Shown here: piece after piece, positions 261-60,610 of the stretch
Numbering within the stretch: the first letter of the stretch is position 1
Layout: each line of letters starts with the position of its first letter
Sequence record: OP136151.1
Strand: one strand, 5' to 3'
DNA from: Escherichia phage Pondi
DNA: 60,610 nucleotides
The notes under the pieces: generated by a model
Told to the model about the DNA's origin: nothing
What the model saw: only the letters and a program-made list of their open reading frames with translations
Database searches by the model: none
Made by a program: the position numbers and the translations under genes

Positions 261-923
261 TTAGCTCGCTGAAATAGAGAAGAAGTTACCGGACGACTGA
301 TTGGTTGGGAAACCGTCAGGACGTTGGTCAGCTTCAAGCAGGCGCAGGTATTTGTCGTATTCGGCCTGAGACTTAGCTGCCAGTTCCGCCGCGTCGTCGT
401 ACATTGCATACAGCCACAGCGCGTAGGCCACGATTGTGTTGCAGAAGCGCGCGGGTACCAGCGGAGTGTCGGAGTCGTTTACCAACTCTACGGACTCACG
501 GTACCAGGAAAATTGAAAGTTGAATTGCTTGTCAGGGCGCGGGTACATCTGGATGGACGAGTCCGGCATGATGACAAACTGAGTCGGGTATCCCTGTTCC
601 AGCATGGTGCTGTACGGGCTGAAGTTGTGAAATAGTTCCGGGTAGACCAGGTGGTTGTCAAACATGAGACGAGCCTGATCCCAGCGATAATGACCGAGTG
701 GTGGCACGATATGCGTTTCCCCGGTATCGACGGTACCTTCCAGCATACCGCCCCACAGGAAGCGCCAGTCACCCCACAGGTTTTCAATATAAGTGGTGGC
801 GTCCTTCACATACTGCACAATGCGCGCAGCGTCGCCGGACACCACAGCTACCGACTGGATATTGCCGGAATACCCTGCGTCACGGGCAACTCGTTGAGAC
901 ATTCCTAACAGGGTATTCGACAT
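261..923 (-). CDS. Virion structural protein, 220 aa (possible head-tail adaptor or tail protein)
   Basis: ORF in late operon directly upstream of the large tail protein gene; AAGGAG Shine-Dalgarno 6 nt before ATG at 923; function from position only. Confidence 0.5.
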   Translation of the reverse strand: MSNTLLGMSQRVARDAGYSGNIQSVAVVSGDAARIVQYVKDATTYIENLWGDWRFLWGGMLEGTVDTGETHIVPPLGHYRWDQARLMFDNHLVYPELFHNFSPYSTMLEQGYPTQFVIMPDSSIQMYPRPDKQFNFQFSWYRESVELVNDSDTPLVPARFCNTIVAYALWLYAMYDDAAELAAKSQAEYDKYLRLLEADQRPDGFPTNQSSGNFFSISAS

Positions 924-7864: not shown

Positions 7865-9136
7865 TCACTTTAATTTCTCTTCCAGTTCAGCCACGCGCTG
7901 GGTTAACCGCTTGATTGCCGCCAGTGCGTCGAGCAACATTGGTGTCTGGTCCAGATGATAGTAACCGCCGACCTCTTTAACATACTGCGGATCAATGTCT
8001 TTAATCTGCTGGGAAATCACCCCACGACGCGGCGTGACATCCTCATCATCGTTGAACGTAAAGTTCTTGAACTCCATAGCGTTGACATTAGCCAGCGCGA
8101 TGTCCAGGTCAAGATCGCTACCTACAGTCTTCAGTCGGGAGTCAGACGGGGCCGATGTTGTGATTTGTAGCCATGTTCCCCACGACTGGTTGTTGGTCTG
8201 AATACGCGTAAAGATACGGTTTGATGTGTCGAAGAATCGCTGCTGAAACCACTCGCCGGAAACACCTGTCGCCTTAGCATTACCACGACCTACACCCTGC
8301 GTACATTGAGTGAATACCGATCCGTAGCTTGTCCCGGACACAGGAGGGTTAGCGACAGTACCGCCGATTTGCTGCCATCCTTGCGGTACCGTGTTGAAGT
8401 CAGTGGCGTTCGCTGTCGGTACACTGTTCCCGTCGTAGGCCAGACCGCCGTTTAACCCAATGTACGCCGTACCTGTGCGTGAAGGTTTAGTGAGCGAGAT
8501 AGTCCGGCGTGCGGTGTTGTCGGTACCGTTGGCGAAGAAGAACCAAAGCGCCTCACCGTTGCTTTCAATCAGCGCGCGGCGACCGATGTCTGAGATGTTA
8601 AACGGCGTATGGTCCAGCCACAGACCGGGATAACTGGTCGAGATGGTCTGCGTGTTAGTGAACGTGTTGAATGACAGCGACGCGGCGTTGAGATTGGTAC
8701 GTGCATCTACGGCATTGTCTGCACCGGTACCACCGTTGGCGATCGGGAGAACGCCGGACACGCGGGAGTCGAGCGGCAGACTGCCTACAGTATTCGCCAG
8801 GTCGATAGCGGGGCCAGCGGCTACGCCGTCAAGCCATGCGTGCACGTAGAAATTATTGGAGCGTGCGAGCAGTGAGCCGAGCAACACCCAGTTACCGTTA
8901 ACCGGAGGTTTCTTAGGGAAGTAGGGAGTCTTGTCAAGATAACCAGTCGTGAGAGTGTAGTCAGTAGCGCTGCCGCCGTAGCCCAGCACCATTAGCTGAC
9001 TTACCCAACCGCTGGCCTCGTTATACGTCGGGGTACCGTAGGGAACATAGCCGAGTGCGATTAACTCGTTGACCTTATTGATAACTTGAGGCGTCTTGCC
9101 GGGAATGAAGTAGCCGCCAGCGACTGTTAATTCCAT
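7865..9136 (-). CDS. Tail fibre/tailspike protein with C-terminal intramolecular chaperone (peptidase S74-like) domain, 423 aa
   Basis: Fibre-like motif IANGGTGADNAVDARTNLNA; C-terminal SDSRLKTVGSDLDLD resembles the S-D-x-R-x-K autocleavage motif of endosialidase/T5 L-shaped fibre chaperone domains; terminal coiled coil. Confidence 0.65.
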   Translation of the reverse strand: MELTVAGGYFIPGKTPQVINKVNELIALGYVPYGTPTYNEASGWVSQLMVLGYGGSATDYTLTTGYLDKTPYFPKKPPVNGNWVLLGSLLARSNNFYVHAWLDGVAAGPAIDLANTVGSLPLDSRVSGVLPIANGGTGADNAVDARTNLNAASLSFNTFTNTQTISTSYPGLWLDHTPFNISDIGRRALIESNGEALWFFFANGTDNTARRTISLTKPSRTGTAYIGLNGGLAYDGNSVPTANATDFNTVPQGWQQIGGTVANPPVSGTSYGSVFTQCTQGVGRGNAKATGVSGEWFQQRFFDTSNRIFTRIQTNNQSWGTWLQITTSAPSDSRLKTVGSDLDLDIALANVNAMEFKNFTFNDDEDVTPRRGVISQQIKDIDPQYVKEVGGYYHLDQTPMLLDALAAIKRLTQRVAELEEKLK

Positions 9137-50785: not shown

Positions 50786-51637
50786 TTATTTGAACATTGG
50801 TGCATATTGCGGATTAGAGCGAATGGCCGCTGCAATCTGATCGTCTGACGCGTCAGGGTACTTCTCTTTCACGCGAGCAATCATGGCTTGCTGGTTAGCG
50901 GTGTATCCTTTCTCAGCTTCCTTAGTCGCCAGATCTGCGCCCTCCTGGAACTTAGGACCGCTGCCCGGTAACTCTTCATCGCTGCCACCTTTGTTCTTGT
51001 TGAGGTACTCAGCTTTGTAGGCTTCCTTCGCTTTCGTGCGGCTACCACCGTAGTCTTTAAAGTCTTCAGCGTCAGTAGACAGGAGGCCAGCTTTTTCGTT
51101 GATACGTTTATCAGCGTAAGTGTTAGCTTCAGTTTCACGCTGCGCCTTGCTGGCTTTGGTATCAGCTTCGCCACCCGGCAGATCGTCAATAGCTTTAACC
51201 TGCACGGTACCGTCACGGTAGGTAAAGATCATACGGCCCGTCATGTTGCCGTCTTCATCTTTCTCCATCTGCGGTGTGCCTTGCAGACGCTTACCGTTAG
51301 GACCAACACCGTCCTTACCTTCAGTCGCAGCGCGTGACTTAGCGTTCTCACCAGCCTGGAAGGACTGAGAAGCCTGACGCTCGGACGACTGGAAGTCACG
51401 GTCTTTCTGCTTCTCGGCAGAGTCGTAAACCTGAGTATCCTTGCGCTCGGACGTACCGTAAGCCTGACTGGCCTCGCGCTCGGACGTCTGGTACTTCTGC
51501 TGGAGTGCCATCATTTTCAGTTCGCGTGCTTCTGCCAGACGAGCTTTTTCTTCGTCACGGATTTCAGTAGCACGGTTACCCGCCGCTTCGCCTGCCGCAC
51601 CTGCAAACATTGAAGCCAGTGCTTCACCGATACTCAT
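50786..51637 (-). CDS. Hypothetical virion protein, about 283 aa, charged and Lys/Glu-rich
   Basis: ATG at 51637 overlapping upstream stop (TGATG). Confidence 0.5.
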   Translation of the reverse strand: MSIGEALASMFAGAAGEAAGNRATEIRDEEKARLAEARELKMMALQQKYQTSEREASQAYGTSERKDTQVYDSAEKQKDRDFQSSERQASQSFQAGENAKSRAATEGKDGVGPNGKRLQGTPQMEKDEDGNMTGRMIFTYRDGTVQVKAIDDLPGGEADTKASKAQRETEANTYADKRINEKAGLLSTDAEDFKDYGGSRTKAKEAYKAEYLNKNKGGSDEELPGSGPKFQEGADLATKEAEKGYTANQQAMIARVKEKYPDASDDQIAAAIRSNPQYAPMFK

Positions 51638-52323
51638 CACATGCCTCCCATTGCAGCGGTCATGCCCTGCTGTTTCTCTGCCATATCAACATCGGTCTGC
51701 GCTTCCATCTCTTCAGCGCTGTCGTCCGGTGCACCCATCTCTTCAACTTCTTCGATGGCATCCTCGGCACCTTCCTCAGCGATTTCCTGAGCGTTCGGTG
51801 ATGCGTTGATCACAGCCTTAACGATGTCGGCATATTCCTGTTTCTCTTCAGGTGCCATCTGGCTACCGCCCTGGGCGATGAGAACTTCCAGACCGATCAG
51901 TGCGCCAGCGTCTGCGGTATCGTCCGCTTCTTCCGGGGAGATCAGTTTCAGCATAAGCGCCAGGTCAGTAAGCTGACTCGACGTCTCTGCGGCAGCACCA
52001 ACGATAACCACAGGCGGGAACGAGCCGCCGCTAGTTTTAGCGGCAGCGGTAGCCATCATGAGATAGAAGCCTGTGAACTTACCGACAACCTCGGCAGGTT
52101 CAGAGTCATCTTCCATCAACTGTTGAGATACCATGTCGGCACCCTGACCTTCCCAAATCTCAGAAGAGATCAGCGCCATAACTTTATTATATAGCTTCTC
52201 CATTTCCGCCGGGTCATCACCGCCCATACGCAAAGTTTGCTGGTTCATTGGTTGAGTTTCAGGTGCCTGCATTTCCTGCTGCGGAGGCTGGCCGCCCATA
52301 CTCATTGCATCCATCATTGACAT
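51637..52323 (-). CDS. Acidic virion protein, 228 aa
   Basis: Strongly acidic (many E/D); AAGGGG RBS. Confidence 0.5.
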   Translation of the reverse strand: MSMMDAMSMGGQPPQQEMQAPETQPMNQQTLRMGGDDPAEMEKLYNKVMALISSEIWEGQGADMVSQQLMEDDSEPAEVVGKFTGFYLMMATAAAKTSGGSFPPVVIVGAAAETSSQLTDLALMLKLISPEEADDTADAGALIGLEVLIAQGGSQMAPEEKQEYADIVKAVINASPNAQEIAEEGAEDAIEEVEEMGAPDDSAEEMEAQTDVDMAEKQQGMTAAMGGM

Positions 52324-52338
52324 AATTCGCCCCTTAAT

Positions 52339-52896
52339 TTATTGACCGATAGACTTTAACACACGTTGCTGTACGGAAGCCAGATTAACCGGAGTCCGGT
52401 TTCCCTGCCACGCGTTCTGTTTGGAGGCCACGGGTTTTACGTCACTGGAGTCAGCGAACTGTTTACCTGTGGCACTCTTCATTGCGGCAGCCATACCTTT
52501 GTCCGTGTTACCCATACCCTGACCAGCTTGTGACGCTTCGGTACCGCCACGCACGCGGGTATCGGTACCCACGCGAGTCTGTGATGTCGAACCACGGTAG
52601 CGCACAGCTTCAGTAGAGTTGCCGCTGCTATTGCTGCCGGAACTTGCTGTGTTGATGGGGGTGCCATCTTCGTTACGCTGTGACGCCGGGACAACACCCT
52701 GTGTTGCTTTGGTGTCAGCGTTCTGAGGCTTGTAACCTGTGGTGTCAGCGTTCCGGGCAACGTTACGTTCGCCTGCGGCCCAGTCAGCTTCCGCCTTTTT
52801 CCAGGCTGCATTGTGGCTCATACCGTTGGCTTTGTATGCCTGTACTGCGTCAGCGTAGTATTTCTGCTGATCGATATATTCCTGACTAACGCCCAT
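52339..52896 (-). CDS. Hypothetical virion protein, 185 aa
   Basis: TAATG coupling with upstream gene. Confidence 0.5.
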   Translation of the reverse strand: MGVSQEYIDQQKYYADAVQAYKANGMSHNAAWKKAEADWAAGERNVARNADTTGYKPQNADTKATQGVVPASQRNEDGTPINTASSGSNSSGNSTEAVRYRGSTSQTRVGTDTRVRGGTEASQAGQGMGNTDKGMAAAMKSATGKQFADSSDVKPVASKQNAWQGNRTPVNLASVQQRVLKSIGQ

Positions 52897-53852
52897 TAGA
52901 TGATGCCCCCTAAGTTGAGGTTGTCCACTTTACGCTGCTCACTGAAATCGTCAGCCGACTGGAAGCCTGCGCCCGGTTGAGCGGCGGCGCTCATGGATGA
53001 CATCATGTTGCTGCTATTGTTGGTACCGGAACTAGCACCAGTCGCATCGTACTGATCGGAACTGCTGGTACCCGCCTGCTGACCGAACGTAGCGCGGTTG
53101 GCAATCTGCTGTGGTGTAGCGGCCATCGCTTGTGGGTTAGCTGCTTTGGCCGCCTGGTCATTAGCGATACCCAGCGCAAAACCAGCCAGCGCGGAACCGA
53201 TAGGACCACCGAGAATACCGCCAGCCAGGCTTGCCGCCATACTCACAGTTTTGCTGGGACCGACGCTGTTAGCCCACGCCTTACCAACGTTGTGGTTAGC
53301 GCTCAGGTCACTACCTTCAGTTGGTGCAGCACCAGCCGTCAGGTTGCTTGCCACGCCGCCAACGGCAGCACCAATACTACCGAGGCCACCCATTGTTGCT
53401 GCGGTGGTTTTGGCGTTAGCTGTGTCACGGAAGCCCTGGTCACGCGCGGCAATGTTTGCTGCTGCTGAATGGCTTTCCGAGTCAATACCAGCAACGTCGG
53501 ACGCCGACAAGGCACCTTGCGGTGCGCTGGTTGACGGTGCGGCTGCTGCGGTGCGTGAAGAACGTGCGCTATCCACCGCCGACTTCAGGCCGCCCATGAG
53601 GCTGCCGCCAGTCTGCTTAGAGTCACCTGCCGCTGCTGCCGTTGCACCTGCCGCTGCTGCGCCTGCTGAAGCCCCACTGGCCGCATTGCTCGACGTAGCG
53701 TTACCTTTGCTGTTACCCGCGTTATTGCTGCCGCCGTTGCTACCACCGAGGCCGCCGCCTAAGCCGCCGCCACGCGAAGATGCGTCAGCACCCAGGCTAC
53801 CGTTGCCACGGGTTGATGAGCTACCTGCGGTACCGCCTTCTGCTTGTGCCAT
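52896..53852 (-). CDS. Gly/Ala/Ser-rich low-complexity virion protein, 318 aa
   Basis: GGGLGGGLGGSNGGSNNAGNSKGN...; TAATG coupling. Confidence 0.5.
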   Translation of the reverse strand: MAQAEGGTAGSSSTRGNGSLGADASSRGGGLGGGLGGSNGGSNNAGNSKGNATSSNAASGASAGAAAAGATAAAAGDSKQTGGSLMGGLKSAVDSARSSRTAAAAPSTSAPQGALSASDVAGIDSESHSAAANIAARDQGFRDTANAKTTAATMGGLGSIGAAVGGVASNLTAGAAPTEGSDLSANHNVGKAWANSVGPSKTVSMAASLAGGILGGPIGSALAGFALGIANDQAAKAANPQAMAATPQQIANRATFGQQAGTSSSDQYDATGASSGTNNSSNMMSSMSAAAQPGAGFQSADDFSEQRKVDNLNLGGII

Positions 53853-54154
53853 TATTGCGCTCCTTGTTTCATTGCGTCGGCCATGCTGCCTGACAGTAAA
53901 GCTGAGTTAGCCTGCTGCCCCGGAGGGATGGAGTTGTCGTAGCTGTCGATAACACCGTGCGTGTCATCCCAGCGACGCTGCTCATTCTCCTGCTGCTTCT
54001 GCATCAATTTCATCTGCTGGTTACCCTGCTTGTACTGCATGTAAGCGCCGTAACCTTTCGCAGCACCAGAGATTAAATCCAGTGCCGCCTTGTTGTTACC
54101 CAGCCAGTTGAAGGCGCTGGAAGCGGTGTCAAGAAAACTACCGAAGAAACTCAT
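53852..54154 (-). CDS. Hypothetical virion protein, 100 aa
   Basis: AAGGAG RBS; TAATG coupling downstream. Confidence 0.5.
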   Translation of the reverse strand: MSFFGSFLDTASSAFNWLGNNKAALDLISGAAKGYGAYMQYKQGNQQMKLMQKQQENEQRRWDDTHGVIDSYDNSIPPGQQANSALLSGSMADAMKQGAQ

Positions 54155-54163
54155 AGCTGCTCC

Positions 54164-55282
54164 TTATTTCAGTTTGTCGGACCAGGTGGTAACACTACCA
54201 TAAAGTGACTGCAAATACTTCAGGTCGTTGTTACGGTTGCTCAGTTCCTGTGAGATCAACTTGTTCTTCTGGTCCGTGGTTAAGTCCGGGTTAGAAGAGA
54301 TGTTGTTGATGTTCACTGAACTGTTGTTTAACAGGTTGTTCACCGAGTCCGTATAACTACCACGGGCGTTGGCCTGAATAGACGTTGCGAACTGTGCGGC
54401 GTCCTGCTTCAGCTTGGCGTTCTCCAGACCGAGGTTGGCGTTGAACTCAAACTGTTGTTGCTTCAGGGAATCTTTAAACTGCGACGCCTGATTCTTAATC
54501 TGCTCGGCAGCCTGCGCTTCTGTCACTTTACCGGAGCGGATTTGCTCGGCCAGGCTTTGGCTGAACTGTGACGCCTGGTTGTTGATCTGCTGCTGGGCTT
54601 GCTGCTCGCTGACCTTACCGGAACGAATCTGTTCTTCTAAAGACTTTGCGAACTGTGACGCCTGGTTGGTGATTTGCTGTTGTCCTTGCCCTTCTTGCAC
54701 CAGGGCGGCACGTTCGGCTTCTGTCAATTGACGATCCGTCTGACCTTCCTTTACCTGTGTGGCGCGTTCAGCTTCCGTCTGGCTGCGATTGTACTGCGCT
54801 TGACCTTGCGACTGGGTAGCCATCTGCGACGCCATGTTTTGTGCAGCCGCATCCGTGGCCGCCTGACCCATGCCTACAGCCATAGACGAGTTACCCATAC
54901 CTCGACGTGCTGCCTGACGCTGTGCAGTAGCTGCCGCCTGCTGCATCATCGGACTGTTCTGCGCCGTCAACTGATTGTACGCCTGATCCACAGTCTGGTA
55001 ATTGTTGGCAGCGTTGGCGTTATTGTTGTTTGCTACGGCACCATTGGTCACCTGCTGCGGTGCTGGCTGTGACGCAACGGGTACCGCCTGCTGCTGCTGC
55101 TGCTGAGCCTGTGCCGCCTGCGCCATTGACGAGGCCACATTCGACTGCTGTGACGCGTCGTTCTGAATGTTGCTCGCACCCAGCGCACCGGACGTGGACG
55201 AAGGGGTGCTCGTAGCGAGCACCTGATCCGGCTGGTTAGTAGTGGTGCTATCCGACTGTGCCGGGTTAGTTAATCCTGACAT
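54164..55282 (-). CDS. Gln-rich virion protein with internal repeats, about 372 aa
   Basis: Start at ATG 55282 (TAATG overlap with fibre stop); repeats QASQF(A/S)(K/Q)SL(E/A)EQIRSGKV x2-3; poly-Q tract. Confidence 0.5.
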   Translation of the reverse strand: MSGLTNPAQSDSTTTNQPDQVLATSTPSSTSGALGASNIQNDASQQSNVASSMAQAAQAQQQQQQAVPVASQPAPQQVTNGAVANNNNANAANNYQTVDQAYNQLTAQNSPMMQQAAATAQRQAARRGMGNSSMAVGMGQAATDAAAQNMASQMATQSQGQAQYNRSQTEAERATQVKEGQTDRQLTEAERAALVQEGQGQQQITNQASQFAKSLEEQIRSGKVSEQQAQQQINNQASQFSQSLAEQIRSGKVTEAQAAEQIKNQASQFKDSLKQQQFEFNANLGLENAKLKQDAAQFATSIQANARGSYTDSVNNLLNNSSVNINNISSNPDLTTDQKNKLISQELSNRNNDLKYLQSLYGSVTTWSDKLK

Positions 55283-56898
55283 TATGCGCTCCTGTACCAT
55301 GCAACTAAGATTAGAGACGATTCTACCACGCCAAAGGACGTACCGGAACCAGTGTTGCTTAACGACAATGTGGCACTATGTCCGTGACTGCCGTAAGCCA
55401 CTGTGTGGCTGTGCGCTCCCAAAGCTACAGTGTGCGTGTGACTGCCGACCGGGAAGGTGTGAGTGTGCGCACCTAAAGCTACAGTGTGCGTGTGCGCACC
55501 GAGGTCGAGTGTATGCGTGTGGTTATCAGCACTTGATGTGGTGACGTTACCCGCTGACGTAGAGTCGTTTGCTGCTGCGCGTAATCTCGCTCCCGGTCCG
55601 TCGACTGTATACGCAGTGAACGTGTGATTGTGACCGCCAGCACCACTGGTGGTGATAGCACTAGGATCGTAACCTGATGTGGTTTTGGTACCGTAGTCGA
55701 AGCTGGATGTGGTTTTCGCTGCGATGGTAGTGTTATCCAGAGTGTCGGTACCCAGGTCAACAGATGCCAGAGTGTCGGTACCCAGGTCGGTGCTGCTCAC
55801 GGTACCCATTGTCACTGAATGGTTGTGCGAGGCCAGGTTGTTTGTCGAAAGCGTCACACTGTCAGCGCCTGTCGTTCCGTTAACGTCACTGCCCGTGGCG
55901 TTGGACATACGTAATGATGTCGACGCTGGTAAGCGTACCCATGTGGTACCCGGATACTTAACGTTAGGATCGATGTCAGCGTCAAAGAACTCGGTACAGC
56001 CGGGGAACAGTTCCAGTTCAAGAATAGCCGCCTGCACGCGGTCGAGAAAGTTCGGCGCGTTAACGATGTCGATAGCTTCCTGCGCGTAAGTTGCCGCGTC
56101 CGCCGCACTACCTGCCGCTGCCGTTGCGGAGTTTGCCGCTGCCGTTGCGCTGGCGTCGGAAGCCGTAGCAGAGTTCGCCGCTGCCGTCGCAGAGTTCGCC
56201 GCTGCCGTGGCGCTGCTGGCGGCGTTACCCGCAGATGTGTTTGCCGCAGACGCAGAGTTTGCCGCTGCCGTGGCGCTGCCGGACGCTGCCGTGGCGCTGC
56301 CGGACGCTGCCGTGGCGCTACCTGCTGCTGAATCTTTGGACGCGGTGATAGCGTTTGCTGACGCTAGAGCATTCGCTGCTGACGCCGCTGCTACGTTACG
56401 CTCACTCAGTGCCGTAGCTTCACTGGCCGCCGCGAGCGCTGCCTTAGCCTGGGCAATTGAAAGCTGCTCAAAGGCGGTAGTGTAATAGCGTGCACCCATC
56501 TCCAGAATCTGGAAACGCTCACCGTTATAGACGAATGTGTAGACACCTTCGGCAAACAGGTCACCTGCTGCCACCGCACCAAACACTGACAGCGTGACAT
56601 TTTTAGCGGCCAGGTCGTTTACGCTCAGGGTAGACGGTCCGGTAGACGCATCGTTGATTCGGAGCGCAACGTTACTCCCGGCAACATAGTCGGTATCAAA
56701 GTCATCCAGCGTGGCGATGTGATCGTTCCCGGTACCCGTATCCGTTGAGTAGTTCAGGGTACCGGAAGTTAACTGGGAAGCAGGCGGGACCACCGAGAAA
56801 GCCTCGGTGATCTTTTCCATCTCACGGTTGTAGTCGAACGGGTCGACAATCGTACCCGCTTCAGCCGGATTAATAAAGTTGTAATATTCGTTACTCAT
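55282..56898 (-). CDS. Tail fibre protein 2, 538 aa, Ala/Ser-rich repeats and C-terminal HxH repeats
   Basis: Paralogue of 56895..58520; NHTHTLDLGAHTHTVALGAHTHTFPVGSHTHTVALGAHSHTV recalls metal-binding HxH motifs of fibre tips; ATGA coupling. Confidence 0.65.
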   Translation of the reverse strand: MSNEYYNFINPAEAGTIVDPFDYNREMEKITEAFSVVPPASQLTSGTLNYSTDTGTGNDHIATLDDFDTDYVAGSNVALRINDASTGPSTLSVNDLAAKNVTLSVFGAVAAGDLFAEGVYTFVYNGERFQILEMGARYYTTAFEQLSIAQAKAALAAASEATALSERNVAAASAANALASANAITASKDSAAGSATAASGSATAASGSATAAANSASAANTSAGNAASSATAAANSATAAANSATASDASATAAANSATAAAGSAADAATYAQEAIDIVNAPNFLDRVQAAILELELFPGCTEFFDADIDPNVKYPGTTWVRLPASTSLRMSNATGSDVNGTTGADSVTLSTNNLASHNHSVTMGTVSSTDLGTDTLASVDLGTDTLDNTTIAAKTTSSFDYGTKTTSGYDPSAITTSGAGGHNHTFTAYTVDGPGARLRAAANDSTSAGNVTTSSADNHTHTLDLGAHTHTVALGAHTHTFPVGSHTHTVALGAHSHTVAYGSHGHSATLSLSNTGSGTSFGVVESSLILVAWYRSA

Positions 56899-58520
56899 GC
56901 TGTACGTCTCCAGCCGACGAGGATAGTAGATTTTGCCACGATGCTGAAAGCCTGATCAATACCCGTGTTACCGATGCTGGCTGTCACTGTATGGTTGTGA
57001 CTTCCCACCGCTACCGTGTGAGTGTGGCTTCCCACATCTACCGTGTGACTGTGTGTACCCAGCGACACAGTGTGTGTATGTGCACCGATACCAACAGTGT
57101 GGTTGTGTGACGGTAGGTCGAACGTATGCGTGTGGTTACCAACGCTGGATGTGGCGACGTTACCCGCAGACGATGAGTCGTTTGCTGCTGATTTAAGTTT
57201 TGCCGTAGTACCGGTACCGTTAATAGCGGGTACGGTATGACTGTGACTGCCTGCGGCACTTGATGTGGCGTTGGCGTAATCATAGCTGGATGACGTAAGG
57301 TCACCGTAGTCAAAGCTGGATGATGTCAGGTTACCGTAGTCTTTGCTGCTGGATGTTTTGGTACCGTAGTCAAAGCTGGTTGACGTCTTGTTACCTAAAT
57401 CCGTATTGGCAATTGTCGCGGTACCAGTATGGTTGTGCGATGGTAGGTTGGCTGTTACCAGTGTCACAGTGTCAGAGCCTACCGTGGTCATGACGTCGCT
57501 TGCTGTGGCGTTGGATGTGCGGATGCTTTGCGATACCGGGAGACGTACCCAGGTGGTGCCGGGGTATTTGGTGTTAAGGTTAATGTTCAGCGCATAGAAT
57601 TTGACGACACCCACGTCCAGCGTACTGGTTAACAGGACACCCATTACCGCCGCCTTAAACGACGCGTCACCGATAGCGTTGAGCGCAGTCTGAGCGCTGG
57701 CCGCCGCTGCCGTTGCTGAGTTTGCCGCTGCCGTTGCTGAGTTTGCCGCTGCCGTGGCACGAGTGTTAGCCGTACTGGCGCTACCTGCCGCTGCCGTGGC
57801 GCTACCTGCTGCTGACGTGGCGCTGCCGGACGCTGCCGTGGCGCTGCTGGCGGCGTTACCCGCAGATGTGTTTGCCGCAGACGCAGAGTTTGCTGCATTG
57901 GTTGCAGACGTCGATGCGGCGCTGGCAGAGTTTGCTGCGGTTGTCACACCCGAAGCTGCGGCGCTGGCGCTGCTGGCTGCATTACTCGCGCTTGTCGCTG
58001 CGGCGCTGGCGCTATTGGCTGCGTTGGTGGCGGATGTGCCAGCGTTTGTGGCGGCGGTAGTCGCTTGGGTAGCTGCGGTCTGCGATGCGTTTACCGCACC
58101 GGAAACAGTGTTGACTACCTGGAAACGGGTACCGTCATAACGGATGGAATAGATGGTGCCTGCACGCAGATCGTTAGCCACCAGTGGACCGAGCGCTGTA
58201 GTCAGGTTGACGAGCGGCTTAGGGCCGAGTCCGTTAATGTTGAGCGTGGCCTCCCCGGTGTTATTAACGTGAATATTGAGCAACACCTGCATACCCGTGA
58301 TATAACCGAACCTGCCGTCGAAGCGCGGTAGAGTTACGGTGTACGCCGTAGATGTACCCTGCGAACGGGCATAGTTTCCGGTGTTGGAGGCCAGTGCATC
58401 TGGCGACGGCAGGATGTCGAAAGCACGGGCAATCGCGGAGAAGTCGCCGTTGTATTTTGTTGACTCCAGACGGTCGCCCGGTTCCACCGGGTCCATGTAG
58501 TTGAAATAAGTGTTAGCCAT
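56895..58520 (-). CDS. Tail fibre protein 1, 541 aa, Ala/Ser-rich repeats and C-terminal HxH repeats
   Basis: Ala/Ser/Thr/Asn-rich repeats; GAHTHTVSLGTHSHTVDVGSHTHTVAVGSHNHTV; TAATG coupling with upstream large tail protein. Confidence 0.65.
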   Translation of the reverse strand: MANTYFNYMDPVEPGDRLESTKYNGDFSAIARAFDILPSPDALASNTGNYARSQGTSTAYTVTLPRFDGRFGYITGMQVLLNIHVNNTGEATLNINGLGPKPLVNLTTALGPLVANDLRAGTIYSIRYDGTRFQVVNTVSGAVNASQTAATQATTAATNAGTSATNAANSASAAATSASNAASSASAAASGVTTAANSASAASTSATNAANSASAANTSAGNAASSATAASGSATSAAGSATAAAGSASTANTRATAAANSATAAANSATAAAASAQTALNAIGDASFKAAVMGVLLTSTLDVGVVKFYALNINLNTKYPGTTWVRLPVSQSIRTSNATASDVMTTVGSDTVTLVTANLPSHNHTGTATIANTDLGNKTSTSFDYGTKTSSSKDYGNLTSSSFDYGDLTSSSYDYANATSSAAGSHSHTVPAINGTGTTAKLKSAANDSSSAGNVATSSVGNHTHTFDLPSHNHTVGIGAHTHTVSLGTHSHTVDVGSHTHTVAVGSHNHTVTASIGNTGIDQAFSIVAKSTILVGWRRTA

Positions 58521-60610
58521 TATCGTACCTTTCTACGTGGTGACCATTCGAATGATAAATCCTCTGCGGTAAACTGCGGATGGATTCGTGACCGGATGTA
58601 CAGCATCGTGCTGACGTCAAAACCTAAGCCGTCAATGTCAGATGAGATTGTCGGGTTTTCCGTGGCATCCCAGTAGACCTGCCCCCACAGCGACAAATCC
58701 CAGCGACCGCCGCCGGACACTAACAGGCCAGATTCGACCGATGCCTGCGGAGTGGATGCGCCTTTATTGTACGAGAAAACGACACGCGCGTTAAGGTAAG
58801 ATTGTGCGCGGATACTCATGTCCATACGGCGGTACCGCTTACGGGTATCCGGGTCACCCTGGTTGGCGAAGGAAGTACGGAATACTGATGACCGTTCACC
58901 GCCATCGTTACTGGCCCCTACGGAATCCTGATAGACGTATCCGGTATCCGAGATGAAGAAGATACGACCGTACGGGTTGACCGCAGCACGCACCGTCAGA
59001 CCGCCGTAGTCAAACATCGAGAAGCCGATCACATTCCCCTGATTAGTGGAAAGGGCGATGTTGACGTCTCCCTCAAAGTGGAGTCGGTACTGCCCTCGAC
59101 TCTTCCTTGCCATTGCGCAAGTGCAGCGAGAATAGTTAGGTACGATGGTGTCTCTGATGACGTCGCTGATAGTACCGTCGCTAAAGTTACCAAATTGGTC
59201 AGTCCGGTCGATACTAATGATGCCTGCCTGGGCGAGTACGAGTGATTGAGACTGGTACACCCCAGTAAATTTAGAGATACCAGTATGCTGAGTAATAACC
59301 TCTTTTTGCCAGTCATCAATGCTGCTCCCCTCAAGACTTTGGATGTCTTTATCTGTACAAATAATAAGCGATTTTGGTGCCGGAATCAGTGAAGAGATTT
59401 CCGAACCTACGCCGACCGCCAGTGCGCCGAGGCCACCGCTCCAGTCCATCGGGCTACCCAGCACGCTGTGTTGCAGGCTACCTTTCGGGAACGCGAAGAA
59501 CAGATGGTCTTTGTATTCCACTACATCGAACGGGGTATCCGTGTCAGCCTGCGTCGGGATAAAGGAGAAGCCATGCGTCTCGTCGTAAACGAAGCCGTTG
59601 CTCACACCGTTCACGCCGTACATTGCGAACGTGTTCATACCGCCGAAAAAGTTGTGGTTGGTGAAGCGGTACAGACCGTTAGCCGGGAGAACGTTAGGCG
59701 TGGCCGCCGCCGTCACTTCACCGATGTCAACGTTATACGTATCGTTGTGAATCACTTCGCCAGCCTGGAACGTTCCGGTCACGTCAGTGAACGTCAGGTA
59801 ACCGGACGAGTGGTCCTGAGCGATGTAACCTACCCAGCCGACGGTTGCCGTAGCGCCGGACGTCACACCACGGATTGTATCGCCCGGACCGAGTTCGTCG
59901 TCAGTGGTGGTAGACGGGCGCGTATCCCATCCCATCGTAAAGCCCAGGTCGACTTCCTGCCAGCCTGTCACCGTACTGCGATACATTTTAGTGCTGTTGG
60001 CGTCAGCGTCACGGAACGAGTACACGACACCTTCCAGATCCCATACACCGCGCACACTGTTGATACCCGGCACCACGCCAATCTTAGCGCGACGTAATTC
60101 ACTCAGGTAGAAGAAGACACCTGCGGGAGTATCCGGGGAGGCCAGCATCGGTTCCACTTCATACTCACCGTTGACCTTATACTCGGTACCGTCACCCTTC
60201 ACCATAGTCTCGCCAACCTGCACCGCACCAGCCAGCGTGGACACGTACACCCACATGTCAGCGTTGGTAACTTTGATGATGTTCACTTCCACTGTAGCGG
60301 CTGAGGATAAGCCCAGTAACGCATTGCCGACTTCCAGCGTGTTAGCCGCCAGCGGTGACATCAACAGAATCGTAGTGCGTGTAGCTGTCGGACTGTAGCT
60401 GCGTTGGTCAATAGCTTCCGTCGAGAGGTACTCGATAACGTTAGCGCCGATATTCTCACCCGGCATGAATGTGACACCATTAGTGACATCACACCAGATT
60501 TCTTTACCGAAAACCGCGCCGACAGTTGCTACCGCGCCGGACGTTGGTCCTGTGATAACGTCACCCGGTAGCAGACCTGTAACATCGTCCGTCATGTTGA
60601 GGCTGTACAC
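58520..60610 (-). CDS. Large virion/tail structural protein, C-terminal 696 codons of the junction-spanning gene (5' end is 1..257)
   Basis: Track ORF runs to window edge and begins with an internal GTG; in frame with 257..1 across the 77-bp overlap; lies between adaptor-like gene and the fibres. Confidence 0.65.
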   Translation of the reverse strand: MYSLNMTDDVTGLLPGDVITGPTSGAVATVGAVFGKEIWCDVTNGVTFMPGENIGANVIEYLSTEAIDQRSYSPTATRTTILLMSPLAANTLEVGNALLGLSSAATVEVNIIKVTNADMWVYVSTLAGAVQVGETMVKGDGTEYKVNGEYEVEPMLASPDTPAGVFFYLSELRRAKIGVVPGINSVRGVWDLEGVVYSFRDADANSTKMYRSTVTGWQEVDLGFTMGWDTRPSTTTDDELGPGDTIRGVTSGATATVGWVGYIAQDHSSGYLTFTDVTGTFQAGEVIHNDTYNVDIGEVTAAATPNVLPANGLYRFTNHNFFGGMNTFAMYGVNGVSNGFVYDETHGFSFIPTQADTDTPFDVVEYKDHLFFAFPKGSLQHSVLGSPMDWSGGLGALAVGVGSEISSLIPAPKSLIICTDKDIQSLEGSSIDDWQKEVITQHTGISKFTGVYQSQSLVLAQAGIISIDRTDQFGNFSDGTISDVIRDTIVPNYSRCTCAMARKSRGQYRLHFEGDVNIALSTNQGNVIGFSMFDYGGLTVRAAVNPYGRIFFISDTGYVYQDSVGASNDGGERSSVFRTSFANQGDPDTRKRYRRMDMSIRAQSYLNARVVFSYNKGASTPQASVESGLLVSGGGRWDLSLWGQVYWDATENPTISSDIDGLGFDVSTMLYIRSRIHPQFTAEDLSFEWSPRRKVR
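60534..60610. repeat. 77-bp terminal direct repeat, exact copy of 1..77
   Basis: Identical to the first 77 nt of the window. Confidence 0.9.

Follow-up and report, generated by a model that had tools for sequence, protein, structure and literature searches.

What do two adjacent, repeat-rich genes of Escherichia phage Pondi encode, and do their repeats make them a source of host-range variation? The genes occupy 55282..58520 on the minus strand of sequence record OP136151.1, whose whole stretch of 60,610 nucleotides (nt) was analysed and is called the window here. Our answer is that they code for two homotrimeric tail fibres, which would be docked by paralogous N-terminal domains on a tail like that of phage SU10; we give this reading a probability of about 0.8. 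Fibres ending in a needle with HxH motifs (two histidines separated by any residue) are already well known from T-even, lambdoid and Felix O1-like phages, and the Pondi genes are orthologues of sequenced, poorly annotated genes of phage PTXU04. Useful side results are the fixed geometry of these fibres, a natural variant without the needle, and recurrent in-phase gene conversion between the two genes.

Two paralogous fibre genes and their orthologues

The list of open reading frames (ORFs) places a gene 17-like gene (class 17) at 56895..58520, coding for 541 amino acids (aa) from MANTYFNY to GWRRTA, and a gene 18-like gene (class 18) at 55282..56898, coding for 538 aa from MSNEYYNF to AWYRSA. 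Both are on the minus strand. The stop of gene 17 and the start of gene 18 share four nucleotides (ATGA), an overlap that is kept at all related loci examined. The two proteins are 36% identical over the N-terminal 140 aa (E = 5e-26) and 53% identical over the C-terminal 255 aa (E = 2e-77), and by sequence comparison they are homologous along their whole length. Tail-fibre families of PHROG match both of them (gene 17: E = 3e-27). An initial annotation of this DNA, made from the letters alone, had proposed adjacent genes of 538 and 541 aa with similar N-termini that encode paralogous tail fibres, and each of these points is borne out by the ORFs, by the homology of both ends and by the PHROG matches.

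Direct orthologues of equal length (541 and 538 aa) and in the same gene order are found in PTXU04, a podovirus of the genus Xuquatrovirus, as gp17 and gp18 (HOV50_gp17/gp18). The region aligns with this pair without gaps at 91.5% nt identity, and the proteins are about 93–95% identical (93.5% for gene 17). The two phages differ in that their divergence is a mosaic, the tip of gene 18 is unlike, and PTXU04 gp18 lacks both a 63-nt tract of gene 17 and a perfect 21-nt tandem repeat that are present in gene 18 of Pondi. GenBank labels gp17 and gp18 of PTXU04 "hypothetical protein", with notes of partial similarity to fibre and baseplate proteins of Citrobacter phage, and an HHpred re-annotation calls both "virion tail protein". 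In CRISPRi-ART knock-down experiments on PTXU04, gp17 was scored 'Fit' and gp18 'Semi-Fit'. Our reading offers a specific and testable annotation for these two "hypothetical" genes of an enigmatic coliphage group, which the PTXU04 screen rated as important for fitness.

The surroundings of the pair point to the tail. Six other phage contigs show the same order of an SU10_adaptor gene, a gene for a protein of about 760 aa, fibre 17 and fibre 18. The adaptor gene of the window (261..923, minus strand) was assigned because it matches the Pfam family SU10_adaptor (PF24175, E = 2.9e-11); PDB searches with this adaptor and with the putative nozzle returned nothing significant. The putative nozzle is a gene 16-like ORF (about 756 aa in PTXU04) at 58520..60610 on the minus strand, which exits the end of the window and apparently resumes at 1..~260; the window therefore seems to hold the complete 60.6-kb genome in circularly permuted form.

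SU10, a Kuravirus, has six adaptor docks and six nozzle docks, and carries six long and six short fibres. Pondi resembles it in its adaptor of the SU10_adaptor family, in having two fibre genes beside the putative nozzle gene, and in a tail that lengthens on ejection. Cryo-electron tomography of Pondi showed flexible fibres and a tail that measures 26.6 nm in full and 51 nm in empty particles (PMC9888219). This lengthening is reminiscent of SU10, whose nozzle extends with the participation of its short fibres. The fibres themselves differ, since those of Pondi are paralogues of equal length and have no detectable sequence similarity to the SU10 fibres.

From the N-terminal bead to the tip of the needle

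The N-terminal domain spans residues 1–140 in gene 17 (58101..58520) and, by family alignment and the 36% identity given above, residues 1–136 in gene 18 (56491..56898). In gene 17 it was recognized by profile search, AlphaFold2 (AF2) modelling and Foldseek as an attachment segment followed by a β bead of the trimeric-fibre type. The family used here comprises 20 proteins from about ten phages; about 19 full-length members, from metagenomes, were obtained from a large protein collection. A profile of its N-terminal ~150 residues matches residues 239–332 of the Pa193 tail fibre gp47 (PDB 9b45, E = 3e-16). The AF2 model, which was run on the monomer only, contains β strands at residues 50–135 with a predicted local distance difference test score (pLDDT) of 73–87, and the best Foldseek match of this model was the same Pa193 protein (9b45_2, E = 2e-5, probability 1.0). 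As the model is good only for the bead and the helix that follows it, the fold search is informative for the bead only. Pa193 gp47, modelled over residues 1–340, has a beads-on-a-string structure in which a bead consists of three four-stranded sheets, and its likeness to the Pondi fibres covers both the sequence and the fold of the bead. Pa193 is a myovirus whose fibre of about 500 Å contains several beads, whereas each Pondi fibre has a single one.

The bead is followed by a stalk of heptads, which covers residues 141–285 of gene 17 (57666..58100) and residues 137–281 of gene 18 (56056..56490), the latter delimited by Tandem Repeats Finder (TRF), the family alignment and the conservation of alanine. 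In gene 17 it consists of 19 uninterrupted heptads with alanine at a and d. Across the 20 aligned family members, alanine is invariant or near-invariant at positions 153+7k and 157+7k through 19 consecutive heptads. AF2 predicts residues 140–284 as one helix, and both fibres have weak matches to the coiled coil of T7 gp17 (E 0.019–0.23). Judged by this conservation and by the model, the stalk is an a/d alanine zipper coiled coil.

For the C-terminal part, the initial annotation had remarked that the HxH tips recall T4 gp37, and the searches turn this resemblance into homology. A phmmer comparison with T4 gp37 (PDB 2XGF) gave E = 1.2e-13 with the gene 17 protein and 2.1e-12 with that of gene 18, aligned through FDYGTK and the HxH boxes. 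The two fibre genes were also found by tblastn with the C-terminus of T4 gp37 (E = 4e-21 and 7e-16) and with that of lambda Stf (orf-314; E = 6e-19 and 9e-18). By these scores, true homology links the HxH region to the metal-binding needle of T4 gp37 and to the lambda Stf C-terminus. Residues ~286–360 and 513–541 align with the two halves of the gp37 collar D10, and residues 361–512 with the needle D11; the domain limits, the topology and the seven irons of T4 gp37 are taken from Islam et al. 2019 (PMC6957217). The alignment indicates that the needle is an insertion within the collar, and that the chain returns from it so that the C-terminus completes the collar.

In gene 17, the first half of the collar (residues 286–360, 57441..57665), which includes KFYALNINLNTKYPGTTWVRLP, was placed by alignment with D10 and with Bas95_0020, a fibre without a needle that is described below. 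In the descending stem (residues 361–428, 57237..57440), HxH 1 and HxH 2 bracket four ten-residue repeats of the FDYG type. The tip (residues 429–462, 57135..57236) lies between HxH 2 and HxH 3 and aligns to the T4 gp37 tip at 932–959; it is hypervariable and is presumed to be the receptor-binding site. The ascending stem (residues 463–512, 56985..57134) is made of six GxHxHTVxx units at an exact spacing of nine residues, with HxH motifs at 463, 472, 481, 490, 499 and 508. The second half of the collar (residues 513–541 and the stop, 56895..56984) ends in ILVGWRRTA and aligns with the C-terminal NIAFNYIVRLA of T4 and lambda and with the C-terminus of Bas95_0020. Gene 18 has its tip at residues 426–459 (55522..55623), a hot spot of mismatches against PTXU04, and an ascending stem of six GxHxH units at residues 460–509 (55372..55521), the position of this stem being deduced from the equal-length proteins P0013–P0015 and from the comparison with PTXU04. 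The C-terminal GxHxHTV repeats that had been reported are thus present, and each protein has eight HxH motifs in all, two in the descending arm upstream of the tip and six in the ascending arm. Among the 20 family members, whose C-terminal parts are 24–60% identical, 14 of the 16 histidines in the HxH motifs never vary, and the remaining two are kept in at least 90% of the sequences. AF2 strands occur in both halves of the collar (306–310, 324–326 and 534–539).

Comparison with known needles shows where the Pondi fibres depart from them. T4 gp37 shares the homologous FDYGTK and HxH elements, the collar split by a needle that runs down and up, and the tip between HxH boxes. It has seven HxH motifs (three down, four up), whereas the Pondi fibres have eight (two down, six up) and a longer needle stem, with about 16 extra residues on the way down and about 13 on the way up. 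It is also a 1026-aa distal half-fibre of a myovirus, unlike the podovirus fibre of about 540 aa with its coiled-coil stalk. The C-terminus of lambda Stf has the same type of needle, preceded by heptad regions rich in Ala, Ser and Thr, but lambda has a Tfa gene immediately downstream, none being detectable in Pondi, and a lambdoid N-terminal anchor (PF08400). The best-scoring phage matches for residues 297–541, at about 33–36% identity, come from the Ounavirinae (Felix O1-like phages, for example SUSP1 agp026). These share the collar start PN..GxTW, the end AWVRTA and the lack of a Tfa-like gene downstream, and differ in belonging to the baseplates of myoviruses, in their length of about 780 aa and in a smaller number of HxH and FDYG units. 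Similar tips were found in 582 phage records, mostly of Felixounavirus and T-even types, and HxH motifs had previously been pointed out in a podovirus fibre. The present comparison places the metal needle of T4 gp37 and lambda Stf on the fibre of a podovirus in which a gp38/Tfa chaperone cannot be recognised.

Phage HelliStehle (Bas95), a more distant relative, carries at the same genomic position (L002 16328..17631) two much shorter proteins of 219 and 215 aa, Bas95_0020 and Bas95_0021. They keep the class-17 and class-18 N-terminal domains, a few helical turns, the first half of the collar (KFFDPTLDPNLSYPGTTWVQL; KFF..YPGTTW) and the last collar strand GWRRTA. Both paralogue classes are therefore represented with their N-terminal domains and both collar halves, whereas the long stalk is reduced to those few turns and the entire needle is missing. 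Fibres that lack the needle and retain both collar halves fit the gp37 topology, in which the needle is inserted in the collar. The E. coli B strain BL21 is rough. PTXU04 was assayed on BL21, and HelliStehle is reported to be strictly dependent on O-antigen; this comparison of two phages gives just a hint that the needles may serve the recognition of a receptor other than O-antigen. The needle-bearing fibres of Xuquatrovirus and the needle-less fibres of HelliStehle are natural variants that could be swapped to probe the role of the needle on rough and O-antigen-bearing hosts.

These parts can be assembled into a model. Genes 17 and 18 would be translationally coupled, and each protein most likely forms its own homotrimeric fibre. 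The N-terminal segment and the β bead would dock the fibre on the SU10-like adaptor/nozzle tail. The alanine zipper of 19 heptads would act as a rigid rod, with an estimated length of about 21 nm at 1.5 Å per residue. The collar would carry the long inserted β needle, as D10 carries D11 in T4 gp37. By homology with that protein, the needle would be a trimer whose axis contains eight metal sites; eight metal ions would staple the three chains, each ion bound by three HxH motifs. At the distal end, the hypervariable tip would bind the receptor at the cell surface. As the stalk arrays of the two genes are alike, short tracts are occasionally copied between them, and only copies that preserve heptad phase and length would survive.

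Several observations speak against this model and need to be weighed. The AF2 monomer is uninformative on the needle, with pLDDT below 50 across residues 331–532. A Pfam scan of both fibres and four neighbours found no family at E ≤ 0.1, and the Collar family (PF07484) in particular did not reach E 0.1 for either fibre; PF07484 does match the more distant homologues P0046 and P0054. T4 gp37 requires gp38 and gp57A (PMC6957217). A homologue of T4 gp38 or lambda Tfa was not detected by tblastn over the whole window (nothing below E 1), and the HHpred re-annotation of PTXU04 contains no chaperone annotation. The SUSP1 fibre (L026 3246..5594) is likewise without a Tfa-like gene downstream, so a chaperone gene is not a feature that defines this fold. 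Mass fingerprinting of PTXU04 virions identified only gp7, gp10, gp11 and gp12, and neither gp17 nor gp18. Polar effects could account for part of the knock-down phenotypes in that phage. Finally, if the fibres are independent, there is no obvious need for the two paralogues to agree in length to the residue.

Gene conversion in the stalk and variation in the tip

The initial annotation had listed an identical block of about 62 nt at 56201..56262 and 57832..57893. The block is real, and its length is 63 nt: the tract at 56200..56262 in gene 18, which codes for ANSASAANTSAGNAASSATAA, is identical to 57831..57893 in gene 17 (aa 210–230), the donor by parsimony. The gene 18 block matches gene 17 of the window at 63 of 63 positions, with flanks (168 nt in the same register) at 46%; it matches PTXU04 gene 17 at 62 of 63, with flanks at 53% (89/168), and its own orthologue, PTXU04 gp18, at 50 of 63, with flanks at 82%. 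The gene 17 copy is present in all three gene-17 alleles examined, exactly in the window and with a match at 62 nt in PTXU04 and in contig L035. Relative to the positional alignment, the block is offset by one heptad. The PTXU04 pair and four other pairs (five genomes) have no exact match of at least 20 nt between the paralogues, and this, with the 46% identity of the flanks, puts the identical block far beyond chance. We interpret the tract in gene 18 as a gene-conversion tract from gene 17.

Similar events were found in other samples. In an independent metagenome contig (L034, 562..2178), gene 18 carries the same tract as an exact match of 66 nt; in another (L033, 66..1682), it carries a different gene-17 tract of 76 nt, also exact and offset by six heptads. 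The fibre pair of L035 (629..3870) shares an exact match of 35 nt at the tip. The notion that the 63-nt tract was a private and recent event in the lineage of the window was dropped, because L034 carries the same tract, which makes it a polymorphism in the gene-18 population. All conversion products keep the 538-aa length, except for one allele of 539 aa from a contig with a coverage of 0.88. The earlier suggestion that the repeats could drive recombination has thus gained support from tracts in the window, L034 and L033: the alignments indicate that recombination between genes 17 and 18 is real and recurrent, that it takes the form of short, in-phase, length-neutral copying in the stalk, and that the gene 18 stalk is a mosaic across samples. 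This is a clean, small example of in-phase and length-neutral ectopic gene conversion between paralogues that code for coiled coils.

The repeats themselves mirror the proteins. Arrays rich in Ala, Ser, Thr and Asn are present in both proteins, as had been described, and repeat finding on the region with TRF and a repeat finder, a check that the initial annotation had proposed, returned periods of 21, 27 and 30 nt. These are the coding images of the heptad, of the nine-residue GxHxHTVxx unit and of the ten-residue FDYG unit, respectively, and the 21-nt period exists because the a/d alanine heptads are coded there. An internal tandem had been placed at 56262..56330 with a period of about 24 nt. 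The tandem exists, at 56263..56319 in gene 18, but its period according to TRF is 21 nt, with 2.7 copies that match at 100%; it codes for (GSATAAS)2-GSATAAA and adjoins the converted tract. The 27-nt repeats coding for the HxH boxes lie at 55395..55500 and 56996..57061, and 30-nt repeats coding for SSFDYGxxTS at 57275..57386 in gene 17. In gene 18, an exact direct repeat of 22 nt, with copies 30 nt apart (55737..55788), codes for a duplicated DLGTDTL, which stands in for two FDYG-type units of gene 17. Plus-strand ORFs in the region (for example 57754..58140 and 56207..56485) were rejected as genes, being Ala/Leu/Val-rich antisense mirrors of the GCN-rich codons of the heptad repeats with no support of their own.

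Within the family, the geometry of the fibres is fixed and the tip varies. Between genomes, N-terminal domains are 59–83% identical in class 17 and 36–65% in class 18, against about 30% between the classes, which is consistent with two paralogue classes that are each conserved separately. The spacer from the end of the N-terminal domain to the collar motif PGTTW measures 192 residues in 18 of the 20 proteins and 194 in the other two, and the heptad stalk is free of indels in all 20 despite a stalk identity of 34–48%. Every protein has eight HxH motifs, with one box degenerate in two class-18 members. The distance from HxH1 to HxH2 is 63–65 residues and that from HxH3 to the C-terminus 79–81 residues; the tip, measured as the HxH2–HxH3 segment of 36–40 residues, is the only part of the needle that varies in length. 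Tip identity between genomes is 3–33% (3–32% among class 17 orthologues). When gene 18 of the window is compared with PTXU04, the mismatches fall in two hot spots, the tip and the stalk tract, which adjoin stretches of 200–300 nt with at most one difference; there are 30 mismatches in 55482..55681 and none in 55282..55481. For fibre engineering, the fixed length of stalk and stem and the variation within a tip of 36–40 residues show which parts of the protein tolerate change.

Within one genome, the two paralogues can have similar tips, with identities of 55%, 55% and 76% in three genomes; the figure for the Pondi pair is 55%. Selection for the same or a related receptor, instead of sequence exchange, is a possible explanation, which we hold to be clearly the less probable one. 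In its favour, tip codons for identical amino acids are the same codon in about 50–56% of cases, no higher than elsewhere in the genes, so that any exchange must be old. A recent conversion behind the similarity of the Pondi tips was ruled out on the same ground, as their synonymous sites are no more alike than those elsewhere; either the exchange at the tip is old, or selection for related receptors contributes. Against selection alone stand the contrast between 55–76% tip identity within a genome and 3–33% between genomes, the 35-nt exact match at the tip of L035, and the conversion documented in the stalk, which makes exchange the simpler reading. The two processes are not exclusive and are compatible with each other.

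A second alternative, which we consider improbable, is that gp17 and gp18 form an obligate pair, either as a heterotrimeric metal-stapled fibre or as matched rings of six on the adaptor and nozzle docks that jointly trigger the two-fold tail extension. It would account for the 192-residue spacer found in both classes (18 of 20 proteins) with a shared HxH register, for the presence of the needle in both genes (Xuquatrovirus) or in neither (HelliStehle), and for the ATGA overlap with its translational coupling, which is conserved everywhere. The separate adaptor and nozzle docks of SU10, which serve two fibre types, and the increase of the Pondi tail from 26.6 nm (full particles) to 51 nm (empty ones) would also agree with it. 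A heterotrimer, however, fits poorly with contigs L027–L029, where the paralogue tips are 9–20% identical and of unequal length and would have to share one intertwined tip. The N-terminal domains are about 30% identical between classes and each class is conserved on its own, the SU10 fibres have no detectable similarity to these proteins, and the needle could have come to be present in both genes or in neither through gene conversion alone. If the pair were obligate, in-phase gene conversion would keep the two fibres in step. Two separate homotrimeric fibres remain our preferred reading.

The initial annotation had further proposed that the repeats expand and contract, which would make them contingency loci that change fibre length and thereby host range. 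Perfect 21-nt tandem copies do exist, and the number of HxH motifs differs among distant families (seven in T4, eight in Pondi, seven to nine in T-even relatives), but the family data contradict this idea and leave it very little credence. No variation in repeat number was found among the 20 homologues: their stalks are without indels, 18 of the 20 have the same spacer of 192 residues, their HxH number is constant at eight, and the needle changes in length at the tip only, which places the variability in the presumed receptor-binding tip. Gene lengths are identical to those of PTXU04 despite about 8.7% nt divergence, and the sole 539-aa allele comes from the contig with a coverage of 0.88. A scan of IMG/VR yielded only distant relatives of the N-terminal domain and no close relative usable for a comparison of copy number. 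The 21-nt periodicity is not a contingency repeat. Least credible of all is that the 63-nt block arose as an assembly artefact in this low-complexity, repetitive and GC-rich region, as it would need two path switches that preserve frame and gene length, the tract recurs in the independent contig L034 as an exact match of 66 nt, and gene 18 of L033 holds a different one of 76 nt.

A third fibre and the genes downstream

A third fibre gene, gp04-like, lies at 7865..9136 on the minus strand and codes for a 423-aa protein whose residues 331–387 form a Peptidase_S74 intramolecular chaperone. In the printed sequences, its first 108 residues differ from those of PTXU04 gp04 (482 aa) at one position, whereas the receptor-binding parts of the two proteins are unrelated and their C-terminal chaperone regions have an identity of only 35%. 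This pattern indicates a module swap, which is the largest receptor-binding difference between Pondi and PTXU04 and probably also the main difference in their host range. The link to host range that the initial annotation had drawn from the repeats is not supported: the conversion tracts lie in the stalk and not in the tip, the stalk region is not expected to set host range, and the largest receptor-binding difference from PTXU04 resides in this third fibre.

Directly downstream of gene 18, at 54164..55300 on the minus strand, is a gene for a protein of 378 aa that is rich in Gln, Ala and Asn and contains three units of about 30 residues (NQASQF..SL.EQIRSGKV.E). It has no match in Pfam or PHROGs, and its PTXU04 orthologue, gp19, was scored Fit. 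With its ATG at 55300, the ORF shares 19 nt with gene 18, compared with an overlap of 1 nt between gp19 and gp18 of PTXU04, so that the true start of the 378-aa protein may lie further downstream. Beyond it, 51637..54154 (minus strand) codes for low-complexity proteins of 100, 318, 185 and 228 aa, rich in Gly, Ala, Ser, Gln or acidic residues; the first two, which were the ones scanned, gave no family. These genes lie ahead of that for a giant protein (its length is 2197 aa from the GenBank coordinates and 2198 aa according to the CRISPRi-ART paper), a position that suggests that the low-complexity proteins may be internal or ejection proteins.

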